The translations under genes were made by a program, and so were the position numbers. Below the pieces are notes generated by a model. The model was not told the origin of the DNA. It worked only from the letters and a program-made list of their open reading frames with translations, and did no database searches. 64,000 bases of DNA, from the sequence record OL615013; one strand, 5' to 3'. The stretch is from Shigella phage ChubbyThor. Shown piece after piece: positions 26,181-63,061 of the stretch. The stretch's first letter is position 1, and each line of letters opens with the position of its first letter.

Positions 26181-26414
26181 TTACACCTCTTTGTGATTCT
26201 TCATCTTGCGAACAGTGCCCACAAATCCAAGATCCTTCCCACAGTGGGTGCAGATAGCATGGCAAGCACGGTTCTCGCGGTAGGTGCTGTGCTTACAGCG
26301 CCATTGCCTGAAAGCCGAACGGATAACCGGAATCATGCCGATACAGAAGAGGACCAGGAACACAATACCGGATATCTGAAGTTCAACCAAGAACTTCGCC
26401 CACCAGAAACTCAT
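26181..26414 (-). CDS. Small membrane protein with C-terminal Cys/His cluster
   Basis: Start moved to ATG 26414 (MSFWW...) just downstream of the ligase stop; ORF-track start would overlap ligase by 113 nt. Confidence 0.35.
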   Translation of the reverse strand: MSFWWAKFLVELQISGIVFLVLFCIGMIPVIRSAFRQWRCKHSTYRENRACHAICTHCGKDLGFVGTVRKMKNHKEV

Positions 26415-58568: not shown

Positions 58569-58922
58569 TTACGACAGCTGCTTCAGTTTGTAGATCGTCT
58601 GATAGCACAGCGTCTTGATTTCATCAAGCGTGTTCTGAAGGTGGGAGTCACACTGCCTGTAGATGCCATCGACGTCTATCACCACGCTGTTGACATAGGA
58701 GATAGGGTCTGGGTTATAGAGCTTGATGTTCTCAAACGACGGAACGTACTGGCCACCCGCACCGATGTATGCTTCGGTAAACGTGTCCAGCAAGTCCTCC
58801 AGTTCCCCGTAGAACTCCCCGAGTGCCTTGTGCTTGGCGTAGGACGTTGTAACGAAGTGCAGGGCATGAGAGTGGGCTATAGCAAGCAGTCCACGGTTGA
58901 TGAAAATACTCGCGTTAACCAT
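58569..58922 (-). CDS. Hypothetical protein
   Basis: AGGA SD; no recognised motif. Confidence 0.4.
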   Translation of the reverse strand: MVNASIFINRGLLAIAHSHALHFVTTSYAKHKALGEFYGELEDLLDTFTEAYIGAGGQYVPSFENIKLYNPDPISYVNSVVIDVDGIYRQCDSHLQNTLDEIKTLCYQTIYKLKQLS

Positions 58923-58935
58923 GATGTTGTCCTCA

Positions 58936-58967
58936 GAAAAAGAAATCCCCCTGTATTTAGGGGGATT
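58936..58967 (-). terminator. Rho-independent terminator (minus strand)
   Basis: Minus strand AATCCCCC-TAAATACA-GGGGGATT followed by TCTTTTTCT. Confidence 0.65.
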
Positions 58968-58971
58968 GTCA

Positions 58972-59211
58972 TCACGGCTTGACCAGAGTCATCTTGACGG
59001 TTTCACCCGTGTCGGTGTCTGTCAGGGTCATGACGTCTTGTGCGTTCACAGACTTCACTTTCCCTTGTCTCTTGTCGCCGTTGCGATTGTAGTAGTCGAT
59101 CAGTTCGCCTTTGGTTGGGCGGCCAACATCGGTGATGTCATACTGTCCACGCTTGCCCAGCGCCCGGTGGTCGACCTTTGCCTCTGTCAGGAAGTCTTTA
59201 AACCCTTTCAT
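58972..59211 (-). CDS. Small basic protein with internal-protein-like leader (MKGFKDFLTE); candidate packaged protein
   Basis: N-terminus nearly identical to ORF 5292 (MKGFQDFLED) and similar to T4 IP leader MKTYQEFIAE; GGAGG SD. Confidence 0.45.
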   Translation of the reverse strand: MKGFKDFLTEAKVDHRALGKRGQYDITDVGRPTKGELIDYYNRNGDKRQGKVKSVNAQDVMTLTDTDTGETVKMTLVKP

Positions 59212-59220
59212 ACAACCTCC

Positions 59221-59790
59221 TTAGACAGGCTTGACGCCGAGGAACTTGGCGATATCAGCAGCCAGGTTTTTACCCTTGCTGATGTCGTGTTCTTTACCGC
59301 CGACAGTAACGATCACATATGGGTCGTCTTCACCGCCGAAGTTCACAGACACAGCCTTACCATGGCCGGGGATGCCAGAGTATTCGAACTCAGTGCGACC
59401 ACTCTTGCGAGACTTGCCAACACCCAGTGCTTTACCGATCATCTTGTCCATGTTCGCCAGTTCCTGAGCATAGGCTTCGGTCACCTGGCCTTTGTCAGCA
59501 GACTTGCCAAAGAAGAATTCGAAGCCGTCATGGACAGCAACGACTTCCTGACCTTGGGAGATACCGTGAGTCTGGTCTGGGGTCAGCTTCACCTTGATGG
59601 TATTGCCGTTGGTTAACTCCAGGTTGTAGACATCCGCCTGATTGTCAGGAGTGATCTGGGTCACGGTAGCACCGGAGCACCACTGAGTGCCGTCAGCTTG
59701 CTTGGTGATGGATACGCTTTTGCCCTGGACACCAGCATGGGTCTGAGGCTGAGCAGCTTGTTCTTTAAAGTATTGAAGGAACGGTTTCAT
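59221..59790 (-). CDS. Protein with internal-protein-like leader (MKPFLQYFKE); candidate packaged protein
   Basis: GAGGAG SD; TATAAATA 25 nt upstream of ATG. Confidence 0.45.
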   Translation of the reverse strand: MKPFLQYFKEQAAQPQTHAGVQGKSVSITKQADGTQWCSGATVTQITPDNQADVYNLELTNGNTIKVKLTPDQTHGISQGQEVVAVHDGFEFFFGKSADKGQVTEAYAQELANMDKMIGKALGVGKSRKSGRTEFEYSGIPGHGKAVSVNFGGEDDPYVIVTVGGKEHDISKGKNLAADIAKFLGVKPV

Positions 59791-59815
59791 CTCGAATCTC
59801 CTCGGGGATTTCAGT

Positions 59816-59823
59816 TATTTATA
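59816..59823 (-). promoter_or_regulatory. T4-type late promoter core TATAAATA
   Basis: Exact TATAAATA on the minus strand, 25 nt upstream of the ATG at 59790. Confidence 0.5.
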
Positions 59824-59865
59824 AGCCCCCGAAGGGGCTTTATTCTGTTCAAGTCCAGCTAGTTT

Positions 59866-61866
59866 TCACCAAACATTCAGAAATAGTGCATGACCCATAC
59901 CACCGTTTGACTGAAGAGACCATTTTCCTGTTTCTCTTCCCAGGCGTTCTATGTTGTTGAGTTGGTTTATCGACAATTCAGAAGAGTCAAATAATACCAC
60001 ATCACGTTTTTTGGGTTCTCTCAAATAAGGTCCGAGATCAATATCAATCATCCGGTTTATAAATTCTACTACTTCGGCTTGTTTCTTTGGTAATGTGATA
60101 TCCGGATTGTTTGTCACTTTCTCCAAGCGTTTATTTTCTGCGCTTATCATGGATAGCATAATTTGTGTAACTTTGCCGTCAGACAAGTTGTAATCGTTCC
60201 AAATCACTTCACCTTTATCCGTGATGGTTATATCATTCAAGAAAACCTGGTTTGGGTTGTATGTCTGACTTTTCAACTGTTGGAGGTTTCTGGAAAGATA
60301 TTCCATTTTTGATGAGATTTCATTAATCACACTCTGGACCAAATCTTTGTTCAAAGGAAGTTCATATGTCTTCGGATTGTTCAGGGTACGCCCTTTCTGA
60401 GAGACAATTGGGGTGAATGCAACTTTGCCTTTGTCATGATAATAGGTTACGTTGGTTATCATAGAAGTACCGGCATATTTTCCCGTTTCGGGGAAATTGA
60501 TTCCAGACCAAGTGATGGACATGCCGTTCTCTGTTTCCCCGAACACTGATGCGTTTTTCGGGATTCGCAGGTCTTTGGAACTGATAGTTGGGCCAGAAGA
60601 ATACTTCTTATACAGGTCGTGGAACTGGGCGACAATCGCCTGCGCCGCACTTTTGAAGTCGCGGTATTTCAGATCTGCTGCTTTATCTACCAGTTTACCA
60701 TCTTTATAAACCAGGTAATCTGATTTGATGGTGGTGTCAGAAGGTTCCCAAGCAGCGCCAGTAGCACTGATCAAAATCTCACTGAACTTGGAAGACAGGA
60801 CGAAAACATGATCGTCTTTGCGGCGTATATTAGAATCAAGTTTGTTGATCTCAGCCCAAACTTTGTCCGCCTTCGCTTTCGCCACATAGTTGTTACGGGC
60901 TGTGGTAGAAAGACCTGGAGGAGGGATAATGTCATCACCCTGGATACTGGTTGCCCCCACCCCAAATTCGACGTATGCGATGATCTTACCACCAGACTTC
61001 AGTTCCCAACCCATACCCTGACGGTCAGACGCTGCCATCAGTTTGCGGTCCACTTCACCACGACCAACATACTCTTTGTTGAACACAGTTACCTGGGCGA
61101 TGGTTTGGGTGCGGGCAATCTTCGCCATTGCGCCGTCTTTGACCATGATGGCCAGATCATTGGAACTCAGAGTCACGTCGTTGGCACCGACTACCTTCAC
61201 AACAGAACTGAAGATACCGTTGGATTTTGCCATGACGGAGATGTTCCAGTCGGGGTTGTTTGACGAAGTCCCCACATCAGGGGTGTTGTTCTGAACCGGA
61301 ACGTCACCGACCTTGTCCGGGTCATCCCAGGTGATACCCTGCATCTTCGGACCGTCGAATACCTGAGCCGGATCTTTACCCTTACGAACGAGCCACACAT
61401 AACCACGGTCAGGGACAGGCGCGTAGGTCAGGTCCATCACGTTCAGCTTCTGCTTCAGGCCGGACTGGCGGATGATCTTAGGAATCAGGGTCATCCCGCG
61501 TTCCAGCGCTTTCTTAGAGAAGTTGACAGCATAACCATCGATGGTCTTGCCCAGAGGGGTCGCCAGGAACTGCTTGGTCGCTTCGATCATGGAGGCGATG
61601 ACGCGCATTGGGTTCTTGAAGCGAGCGATGGCATCAGGATAAACAGAGCCGCGCTTCTGGCCGATGAAGACCTGACGAACGTTCTTGCCCAGCCCCTGAG
61701 GGGTATAGAACTGAATGCGGTATTCCTTTTCATCTTCGTCGATGAAGGTGAAGAACACATCGCCTGCGTTCTTCTTGCCCATGGTCAGCTCATACGGAGC
61801 AGAGTTGAACGCTTCGTCCAACTGATCCTTTTCCTGCATGAACTGAAGGAAATTTGGCTTTGACAT
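59866..61866 (-). CDS. Large (666 aa) candidate packaged protein (Alt-like by size and leader; function unknown)
   Basis: Start set at ATG 61866 (MSKPNFLQFMQE) with AGGAG SD; leader resembles the three other MK..F..F..E N-termini. Confidence 0.4.
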   Translation of the reverse strand: MSKPNFLQFMQEKDQLDEAFNSAPYELTMGKKNAGDVFFTFIDEDEKEYRIQFYTPQGLGKNVRQVFIGQKRGSVYPDAIARFKNPMRVIASMIEATKQFLATPLGKTIDGYAVNFSKKALERGMTLIPKIIRQSGLKQKLNVMDLTYAPVPDRGYVWLVRKGKDPAQVFDGPKMQGITWDDPDKVGDVPVQNNTPDVGTSSNNPDWNISVMAKSNGIFSSVVKVVGANDVTLSSNDLAIMVKDGAMAKIARTQTIAQVTVFNKEYVGRGEVDRKLMAASDRQGMGWELKSGGKIIAYVEFGVGATSIQGDDIIPPPGLSTTARNNYVAKAKADKVWAEINKLDSNIRRKDDHVFVLSSKFSEILISATGAAWEPSDTTIKSDYLVYKDGKLVDKAADLKYRDFKSAAQAIVAQFHDLYKKYSSGPTISSKDLRIPKNASVFGETENGMSITWSGINFPETGKYAGTSMITNVTYYHDKGKVAFTPIVSQKGRTLNNPKTYELPLNKDLVQSVINEISSKMEYLSRNLQQLKSQTYNPNQVFLNDITITDKGEVIWNDYNLSDGKVTQIMLSMISAENKRLEKVTNNPDITLPKKQAEVVEFINRMIDIDLGPYLREPKKRDVVLFDSSELSINQLNNIERLGRETGKWSLQSNGGMGHALFLNVW

Positions 61867-61908
61867 TTTGTATCTCCTGATGGAATTATGGCGGTTTCTT
61901 CTAATTAG

Positions 61909-61936
61909 CGAAACCAAAAGAGAGCCGAAGCTCTCT
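61909..61936 (-). terminator. Rho-independent terminator (minus strand)
   Basis: Minus strand AGAGAGC-TTCG-GCTCTCT followed by TTTTGGTTT. Confidence 0.6.
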
Positions 61937-61943
61937 TGTCAGA

Positions 61944-62422: not shown

Positions 62423-63061
62423 TTACGGCGTTGGGTTCACCACAGGAATATGGAATCTGATCCCGGCGATGATATCCTTCAGCTGAGGCTTCCAACCATC
62501 CACCAAACGGGGGAGAGCGATAGCACCAGGCTGAACTAAAATGATGTCGCTGCCTGTGATATTGTGCTGAGGGAACTGGGCAAGGTACTGCTCCATGGTG
62601 ACACCCTCATCAATCAGAACCGCACCGACGTCAGACGATGCGTAGGTTGCACCCAGACCGTCAACGCCCCACGCCAAGATGCCCCAGTCAGGGATGTTGG
62701 CTTCAGATGTGATGGTGAATCCAAACACGGTGTTCAGGGAGGTGAAGGAATAGACATCGTGAGTTATGTCATACACCAGATACCCCTTGGCCAGCATATC
62801 GGCAAAGATCGCGTCCGTATCTCCCGCCGCCGGAGTTGGCACAGAAAACAACAGCTCGCCCTCAGGAGGGGCAGGATACGTGCCGAGGGCATAGAGGCAC
62901 CATGCATCAATGCACTTCTTAATGAATGCCTCGGGTGCGACGTAATCGGCAAGGCGCACAGTCCCCGAGTACTCGGATACGATGATGCCTTCCTTCGCGC
63001 CCTGTAGAGCGATGAAGACCAAGATATGTTCATATCCGGTCTGAGATGGAGTGATGTTCAT
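62423..63061 (-). CDS. Hypothetical protein
   Basis: Start set at ATG 63061 (MNITPSQ), TAATG-coupled to upstream gene. Confidence 0.45.
   Translation of the reverse strand: MNITPSQTGYEHILVFIALQGAKEGIIVSEYSGTVRLADYVAPEAFIKKCIDAWCLYALGTYPAPPEGELLFSVPTPAAGDTDAIFADMLAKGYLVYDITHDVYSFTSLNTVFGFTITSEANIPDWGILAWGVDGLGATYASSDVGAVLIDEGVTMEQYLAQFPQHNITGSDIILVQPGAIALPRLVDGWKPQLKDIIAGIRFHIPVVNPTP

Follow-up and report, generated by a model that had tools for sequence, protein, structure and literature searches.

Three adjacent minus-strand genes in a 64-kb window (the whole stretch of DNA analyzed here) of the Agtrevirus-like Shigella phage ChubbyThor (Ackermannviridae) probably encode head-internal (ejection) proteins that are loaded like the internal proteins (IPs) and Alt of phage T4. 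Their products, of 666, 189 and 79 amino acids (aa), begin with variants of one short leader of the type of the T4 capsid targeting sequence (CTS). This core reading, T4-type head-targeting leaders on virion-packaged proteins, had been put forward in a first-pass annotation; it is supported by the conservation of the leader, by mass spectrometry (MS) of virions for homologues, by a prohead protease and scaffold in the phage family, and by homology to the N-terminal domain of Alt and to the internal protein Ip9. The window DNA is ~94% identical to Ag3, SKML-39 and SW16-7.

A shared leader on three adjacent genes

The three leaders share the motif [FY]-x-x-[FY]-[LFM]-x-E, with the same spacing as the T4 CTS, MKTYQEFIAE (a sequence also given in PMC8442874). 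Aligned on the Glu (position 0), each has an aromatic residue at -6, an aromatic residue at -3 and a hydrophobic residue at -2. The resemblance to the T4 CTS noticed in the first-pass annotation is thus borne out in the spacing of aromatics and Glu, but in the ending for one leader only, as the other two end F-K-E and M-Q-E and not L/I-x-E. Identity to the T4 CTS is 4/10 for MKGFKDFLTE (79 aa), 3/10 for MKPFLQYFKE (189 aa) and 3/10 for the Glu-aligned PNFLQFMQE (666 aa); identity to the RB32 Ip7 leader (MKTFKEFINE) is 4-6/10.

We scanned ATG-started open reading frames (ORFs) of at least 35 aa on both strands of the window with an N-terminally anchored form of the pattern, ^M{1,2}x{1,5}[FY]xx[FY][LIVMF]{1,2}xE. 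It picks out exactly these three ORFs and no other, and the same pattern recovers T4 IpII and IpIII and RB32 Ip7 and Ip9 in their own loci. Three adjacent matches are far beyond chance, since residue shuffling predicts 0.087 matches per 116 ORFs. A loose, unanchored motif matches a 77-aa ORF at 26181-26414 (MSFWWAKFLVELQISGIVFL), which is membrane-protein-like and was treated as a false positive.

Similarity of the leader in related phages, named beforehand as a test of the reading, is present across six Ackermannviridae genera: Agtrevirus, Limestonevirus, Kuttervirus, Taipeivirus, Miltonvirus and Nezavisimistyvirus. Leaders in these relatives include MAIPSFLNFLEE, MSTPNFLDFMKE and MTPSFSGFLAE on the large protein, MKTFLEFFTE and MKKFSEFLIE on the 189-aa protein, and MKNFQDFLLKE and MKSFGDYLLKE on the 79-aa protein, and their conservation is limited to positions 1, 2, 4, 7, 8 and 10. 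Alignment of 30 homologues of the 189-aa protein shows no substitution at M1, F4 or E10; position 7 holds F or Y (H in 2/30) and position 8 F, L, M or Y, and positions 3, 5, 6 and 9 are free. Judged from the alignment, this is the signature of one helix face plus a putative cleavage Glu. AlphaFold2 (AF2) predicts a helix at the leader, spanning residues 4-13 in the 189-aa protein.

Residues -10 to -1 of T4 IpII and IpIII are annotated as removed (record X04567), and the T4 protease gp21 cleaves after I/LxE and more weakly after xxE (PMC12991175). The end of the 79-aa leader, L-T-E then A, is a canonical prohead-protease site. The 189-aa leader ends in F-K-E then Q here and in L-I-E or L-V-E in Serratia-phage homologues. 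In the 666-aa protein M-Q-E12 is non-canonical, whereas L-D-E18 then A is canonical and conserved.

An Alt-type N-terminal domain on mosaic cargo

Among 36 homologues of the 666-aa protein, residues 1-192 hardly vary, and F6, L7, F9, E12, Q15, L16 and E18 in the propeptide region do not vary at all, while the rest of the protein differs in content and length. Across 120 homologues, ranging from 541 to 1105 aa, the architecture is mosaic. Exhaustive searching by phmmer with residues 1-200 as query retrieved 93 cluster representatives (proteins of 279-1677 aa) in which the domain is always N-terminal. It is preceded by 4-50 residues, often CTS-like, that end in [L/I]-x-E and are followed by (A/S)(F/L)(N/D)(S/T)xPY. 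In the divergent alignment of this carrier family (A3, mean identity 28%) E18 is among five invariant residues, and 3 of 14 long distant carriers end in ADPrib_exo_Tox (PF03496), the Pfam family of T4 Alt. The cargo of these relatives (P0151-P0243) is mostly without a Pfam match; three have an Alt-type ADP-ribosyltransferase (ART) and one a sub-threshold match resembling anthrax lethal factor.

T4 Alt itself begins MELITE then LFDEDT, and its record carries the annotation "6 amino acids cleaved off"; in Alt relatives of several genera the propeptide varies but ends in L-x-E, with the Glu invariant. Alignment of the carrier profile (A3) with an Alt profile (A4) by hhalign gave a probability of 95.5% and an E-value of 1.5e-8 over 166 co-linear columns, placing residues 9-180 of the 666-aa protein on residues 1-181 of Alt and L-D-E18 on I4-T5-E6. 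A negative control with the 189-aa family gave 0.6%. Neither the ART family PF03496 nor any other Pfam domain was found in the 666-aa protein or in 10 Ackermannviridae variants, and none of the catalogued polyvalent-protein domains was found in the same set. Because the Alt N-domain homology comes without a Pfam ART match, the 666-aa protein is, on sequence grounds, an Alt-type carrier lacking an ART domain: a relative by its carrier domain, not an Alt enzyme. Its maturation site is probably E18 then A19, instead of or besides M-Q-E12.

Near the C terminus, residues 587-663 align with residues 14-89 of RB32 Ip9, which is its whole mature body, at 36% identity (E 3e-13). The same module matches phrog_7673, "internal head protein" (7e-9), has tblastn matches to Ip9 in 153 T-even records, and recurs in many variants of the large protein, sometimes internally. 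The module junctions of the 666-aa protein show no consistent hydrophobic-x-E pattern, and we do not claim internal cleavage there. In the close relative LIMEstone1 a frameshift within the otherwise invariant N-domain splits the large gene (ORF82/ORF81, L004:4348-5944); both halves are MS-detected, and the split could be a sequencing error or real.

The 189-aa and 79-aa proteins

The 189-aa protein consists of the leader (residues 1-10), a beta-barrel (~25-94), a junction, V-T-E105 then A, and an alpha/beta C-module (106-189). Its AF2 model has a predicted local distance difference test (pLDDT) score of 76.6 and comprises a leader helix, a beta-barrel at 25-94, a low-confidence linker and an alpha/beta domain at 105-184; pLDDT dips at residues 101-110, spanning the junction. 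The junction consensus is [VLMA]-[TNS]-E then [AGSNV], with Glu105 invariant, and it is followed in different homologues by four unrelated modules or directly by a stop codon (P0150, Serratia phage 2050H1). In NW77_067 of Erwinia phage phiEa2809 and in P0148/P0149 the junction is followed by the 79-aa protein's body, which begins exactly where its own leader would end.

These fusions retain one leader per polypeptide and join their modules right after hydrophobic-x-E. This suggests that one leader per polypeptide suffices and that the same mature N-terminus would be released from the fused and the separate architecture. The fusion boundaries speak, indirectly but pointedly, for processing at these Glu sites, and V-T-E105 then A is probably a second cleavage site. 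The 181-aa protein of SFP10 had been considered as a 189+79 fusion; this was wrong, as it has the N-domain with a different C-module. The 79-aa protein is simpler, with its leader followed by a basic body of 69 aa (isoelectric point, pI, 9.35). Searches of all three proteins against Pfam, PDB sequences and PHROGs gave no function, returning only a sub-threshold TOBE match and the Ip9-like PHROG.

The same leader on other cargo

Genome-wide in LIMEstone1, the motif is found on the three cluster genes, on ORF167, on ORF173 and on gp54 (likely a false positive). ORF173 (L010:35190-35648) encodes 152 aa; its leader is MKTFLQYLQE, and behind this lies an ART-PolyVal ADP-ribosyltransferase domain (Pfam 5e-12). 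MS has confirmed the protein in virions, the gene has an annotated late promoter, and homologues carrying the leader occur in 229 phage records. As a packaged ART, ORF173 parallels T4 Alt, but it belongs to the H-Y-E clade. ORF167 (L010:29807-29992), a 61-aa hypothetical protein with the leader MMKSFSDYLNE whose gene adjoins tRNA-Met, was not detected by virion MS but may likewise be a small packaged protein. A 59-aa ORF of Erwinia phage phiEa2809 that lacks annotation (L013:5204-5383) has the N-terminus MKTFVEFIRE, which matches the T4 CTS at 7/10 positions; the ATG of this ORF overlaps the stop codon of NW77_067 (TAATG), and a terminator hairpin follows. A conserved leader on unrelated cargo is a hallmark of the T-even internal proteins (PMC3012670).

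Presence in virions and the head machinery

Homologues of all three proteins have been detected by MS in purified virions (LIMEstone1, Sajous1), as the first-pass annotation had expected of packaged proteins. Virion MS of LIMEstone1 (PMC3296691) found ORF80, the homologue of the 189-aa protein, together with ORF81 (23 peptides, 55% coverage) and ORF82 from the split large gene. The particles also held ORF78 (DUF5856) and ORF85 (DUF7270), and ORF78-85 were called an unexplained cluster of structural proteins (PMC3296691). In CsCl-purified Sajous1, gp214, gp215, gp216 and gp217 gave 196, 32, 20 and 10 spectra, respectively (PMC10892097); gp215 is the counterpart of the 189-aa protein and gp216 that of the 79-aa protein. 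We tied gp214-217 to these genes and their DUF5856 neighbor by gene order and, for gp214 and the large protein, by the name of the FrontPhageNews homologue, "putative tail completion protein". A further tie is that the Phyre2 molybdate-binding and ferritin matches of PMC10892097 mirror the weak TOBE match and DUF5856. The S117 tailocin paper contains no proteomics.

The phage family has the head machinery that such leaders would need. LIMEstone1 ORF140 is a gp21-family protease (Peptidase_S77, 1.5e-30) and ORF139 a gp22-family scaffold (T4_CASP, 3.6e-44); in ChubbyThor both genes lie outside the window.

Gene layout, start codons and late promoters

The three genes are consecutive minus-strand ORFs with strong Shine-Dalgarno (SD) sequences, placed as the first-pass annotation had them (Table 1). 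The 666-aa product matches the ChubbyThor protein CHUBBYTHOR_130 at 100% identity; GenBank gives this protein a TTG start (683 aa). The internal ATG preferred in the first-pass annotation, which has an SD, is the right start, because the leader is the N-terminus in 116 of 120 homologues and the TTG extension (61867-61917) overlaps a terminator hairpin; the GenBank start is probably 17 codons too far upstream. GenBank and PHROGs label these proteins as hypothetical, structural or "tail completion".

We derived a late-promoter core, nnTAAATA, from 33 annotated late promoters of LIMEstone1. In the window TAAATA is ~two-fold depleted (17 copies vs ~32 expected), and 10 of the 17 copies sit 31-40 nucleotides (nt) upstream of an SD and start codon, including those of the 189-aa gene and of the DUF5856 gene. 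TAAATA defines the late-promoter core for this phage family, in which early papers had described the late promoter as unidentified. The late-promoter call is good for the 189/79-aa unit, because TAAATA is depleted and is placed at this distance from SD and start codon. The exact octamer TATAAATA, previously reported in front of the 189-aa gene, is indeed there; the window holds one other copy, which precedes the gp54 baseplate gene. The earlier promoter claim therefore stands for the 189/79-aa unit, but the exact octamer is not conserved across genera, being kept in Agtrevirus and Limestonevirus only. The 189-aa and 79-aa genes do share one promoter-to-terminator unit, with the 666-aa gene upstream of the promoter and set off by a hairpin. 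This arrangement of hairpin and promoter between genes resembles that of T4 ipIII-ipII.

Table 1. Positions in the ChubbyThor window of the three genes, their parts, the flanking signals and two neighboring genes
Feature	Position	Strand	Remarks
666-aa gene (CHUBBYTHOR_130)	59866-61866	-	Start ATG 61866; SD AGGAG; N-terminus MSKPNFLQFMQE
Putative propeptide of 666-aa protein, residues 1-18 (MSKPNFLQFMQE KDQLDE)	61813-61866	-	Residues 1-12 fit the CTS pattern
N-terminal domain, residues 19-192	61291-61812	-	Homologous to T4 Alt N-domain
Ip9-like C-terminal module, residues 587-663	59878-60108	-	RB32 Ip9 and phrog_7673 matches
189-aa gene	59221-59790	-	SD GAGGAG; N-terminus MKPFLQYFKE
Leader of 189-aa protein, MKPFLQYFKE	59761-59790	-	Residues 1-10
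Codon of invariant Glu105	59476-59478	-	Putative second protease site; module junction
79-aa gene	58972-59211	-	SD AAGGAGG; N-terminus MKGFKDFLTE
Late-promoter element TATAAATA	59816-59823	-	25 nt before ATG 59790 of 189-aa gene
Terminator-like hairpin upstream of 666-aa gene	61918-61937	-	
GC-rich hairpin after 666-aa gene	59823-59840	-	No T-run on this strand; abuts promoter
Strong intrinsic terminator after 79-aa gene	58944-58967	-	Loop holds CTAAATAC, promoter core of next gene
DUF5856 ferritin/Dps-like 117-aa protein	58569-58922	-	Pfam 8.8e-30; same late cluster; membership in the system uncertain
DUF7270 212-aa protein	62423-63061		True start MNITPSQTGYEH; upstream, same cluster; no leader; LIMEstone1 ORF85 MS-confirmed

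The DUF5856 protein has no leader and is virion-confirmed in relatives (LIMEstone1 ORF78, Sajous1 gp217); a Dps-like DNA-binding protein inside the capsid would be interesting in itself. Two records assigned to other hosts, OR844944.1 and MN871475.1 (Enterococcus phage Efm 3-10 and Pseudomonas phage Pa-sanjiao), hold near-identical Ackermannviridae sequence and are likely mislabeled or contaminated.

Comparison with known systems

The closest parallel is with the internal proteins of T4 and the T-even phages. These have a 10-residue leader of the same spacing (MKTYQEFIAE and RB32 MKTFKEFINE, compared with MKGFKDFLTE here), adjacent genes parted by hairpins with promoters (RB32 has Ip5, Ip9 and Ip7 side by side), and diverse cargo behind the conserved leader; a gp21-type protease and a gp22-type core are likewise shared with the phage family studied here. 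The differences are that position P3 is F or M in 2/3 of the ChubbyThor leaders, that the ChubbyThor 189-aa protein is acidic to neutral, and that the genes sit between those for gp46 and primase. T-even IPs have 76-193 aa, whereas the cargo here is larger and multi-module (189 aa and 666-1105 aa). T4 removes the CTS and keeps ~1000 copies of its IPs (PMC8442874); here leader cleavage and injection are predictions from sequence.

T4 Alt, a NAD:arginine ADP-ribosyltransferase packaged in the head and injected (PMC5512222, PMC9503650), shares with the 666-aa protein its N-terminal domain of ~180 residues, a short propeptide ending L/I-x-E, and its size (682 vs 666 aa). The putative propeptide of the 666-aa protein is longer (18 vs 6 aa) and has a CTS-like start, and its mosaic cargo includes an Ip9-like module and no ART. 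Alt also has its own annotated late promoter, whereas the 666-aa gene lacks a TAAATA element. The MuF-fused and polyvalent effectors (PMC5512222) are alike in combining a conserved packaging domain with variable C-modules that are predicted to be injected, and an ART-PolyVal domain is found behind the same leader in LIMEstone1 ORF173, but the carrier here is the Alt N-domain and not MuF or portal. By its sequence the 666-aa architecture appears polyvalent-like, but its domains are uncharacterized. The ejection proteins of SPN3US and phiKZ (PMC5694885, PMC10052503) are alike in concept, with propeptides cut after Glu by a gp21-related protease and ejection with the DNA. They belong to another phage lineage and have another cleavage motif.

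Proposed mechanism and alternatives

In the mechanism that we propose, each protein would be made late with a short N-terminal amphipathic propeptide; for the 666-aa gene, late expression is assumed. The propeptide, together with the Alt-type N-domain in the 666-aa protein, would dock the protein on the gp22-type scaffolding core during prohead assembly. The gp21-type protease would then cut after Glu, at L-T-E10 in the 79-aa protein, at F-K-E10 in the 189-aa protein and most likely at L-D-E18 in the 666-aa protein, for which the predicted mature N-terminus is AFNSAPYELTMGK. The mature proteins would stay in the capsid beside the DNA and exit with it upon infection. The 666-aa protein would be a mosaic carrier, an Alt N-domain followed by exchangeable cargo that ends here in an Ip9-like module, and the 189-aa protein a two-module polypeptide whose junction, V-T-E105, is probably a second cleavage site. 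An anti-defense role may be proposed purely by analogy with IPI* and Alt (PMC3012670, PMC5512222, PMC9503650).

Several observations weigh against this interpretation. The leader ends F-K-E and M-Q-E depart from L/I-x-E, and the 189-aa protein, with a pI of 6.5, is non-basic, unlike the classic T4 IPs. In front of the 189-aa gene, CTAAATAC, CTAATTAC or no obvious element is found in Kuttervirus, Taipeivirus and Miltonvirus, and between the hairpin at 61918-61937 and the ATG of the 666-aa gene there is no TAAATA core (CTAATTAG is found instead). The Alt N-domain homology is significant only profile against profile, as the single T4 sequence gave an E-value of 0.021. The first-pass annotation had raised an ADP-ribosyltransferase or other effector fold in the 666-aa protein; none was found there or in the other two proteins, the AF2 model of the 666-aa protein being poor (pLDDT 58) and Foldseek against PDB yielding no match at E<=0.001 and no effector fold. 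(Weak GNAT and RNase E fold matches of this model are not trusted.) Virion MS shows presence in the particles, not position inside the head, and the texts of the LIMEstone1, phiPD10.3/23.1 and phiD3 papers give no peptide-level or band-size data that would prove cleavage. A leader is also unnecessary for virion association, given that the neighboring DUF5856 and DUF7270 proteins are without one.

The alternative that survives best, although we consider it improbable, is that the proteins are targeted to the prohead but act in assembly or DNA condensation, as scaffold accessories, as packing proteins like IPII and IPIII, or as components that are degraded and expelled, and not as effectors in the next host. 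That the N-domain is both invariant and abundant in virions (196 spectra; 23 peptides) suggests a structural or stoichiometric role, two of the three proteins are basic (pI 9.0 and about 9.3), no enzymatic fold was detected, and T4 IPII and IPIII are likewise without a defined effector function. Against this, the cargo of the large protein is mosaic and changes fast on a fixed carrier, which is typical of conflict-driven effectors; the leader carries an ADP-ribosyltransferase in relatives, and distant Alt N-domain carriers have Alt-type ART; and some genera do without the 79-aa gene and the C-modules.

Less probable still is a tail-associated "ferrojan horse" operon, as proposed for Sajous1 gp214-217 (PMC10892097). 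That proposal for Vi01-like phages concerns the same four genes and draws on the same virion MS data, but places the proteins on the tail as metal carriers, whereas the sequence evidence presented here puts at least the three leader-bearing ones among head-internal proteins. Its authors saw unchanged infection in TonB- or FeoB-deficient hosts, and Phyre2 confidence for gp215 and gp216 was 63% and 27%. We found no homology to tail proteins, and the name "tail completion" is unsupported by Pfam or PHROGs; leaders, Alt N-domain homology and Ip9 homology all point to the head interior. We give equally little weight to a generic amphipathic helix with no role in targeting or cleavage, the proteins entering virions by other interactions: the leader is just 10-12 residues long with 3-4/10 identity to the T4 CTS, and leaderless virion proteins occur in the same cluster, but the pattern is unique in 64 kb and falls on adjacent genes, is conserved while the positions in between vary, is found on six unrelated cargo types of which most are virion-confirmed, and ends in an invariant Glu that aligns with the Alt cleavage site and at which the fusion protein exactly loses its second leader.

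Loading of head-internal proteins by such leaders may extend further, to a combinatorial scheme in the Ackermannviridae and their uncultured relatives, although we offer this as a tentative idea that may well prove wrong. A propeptide, with or without the Alt N-domain, would load strings of modules into the head; the protease would cut at invariant hydrophobic-x-Glu junctions (E10 or E18, and E105), freeing several injected proteins per precursor, and modules would be reshuffled by being swapped, fused or split right at these junctions.

Implications

Ackermannviridae are widely used in biocontrol and diagnostics against Salmonella, E. coli O157, Shigella, Klebsiella and Dickeya. In the full-text literature we found no paper that links a capsid targeting sequence or internal head proteins to this family, and a 2024 review of the Ackermannviridae leaves internal head proteins unmentioned. 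The concept is that of T4; what is new is its extension to the Ackermannviridae, the Alt N-domain as a carrier of mosaic non-ART cargo that includes Ip9, and the modularity at junction Glu residues.

If these proteins are indeed head-internal, four abundant proteins now described as "unknown structural" or "tail completion" would be re-assigned to the head interior, against the "ferrojan horse" idea. This would provide a short list of proteins co-delivered with the DNA, including the ADP-ribosyltransferase encoded elsewhere in these genomes, as candidates for host takeover in the first minute, for anti-restriction, and for the differences in host range between near-identical phages. Like the CTS in T4, the leader would also serve as a portable tag to package foreign proteins into these phages. 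Beyond this family, the results suggest a general role of the Alt N-domain in delivery, as a carrier of exchangeable cargo in ~90 metagenomic sequence clusters, and mark its relatives as a large unexplored pool of putative injected proteins. Were the combinatorial scheme to hold, the Alt N-domain would rank with MuF as a general carrier for head delivery, with T4 Alt as just one of its cargo versions.

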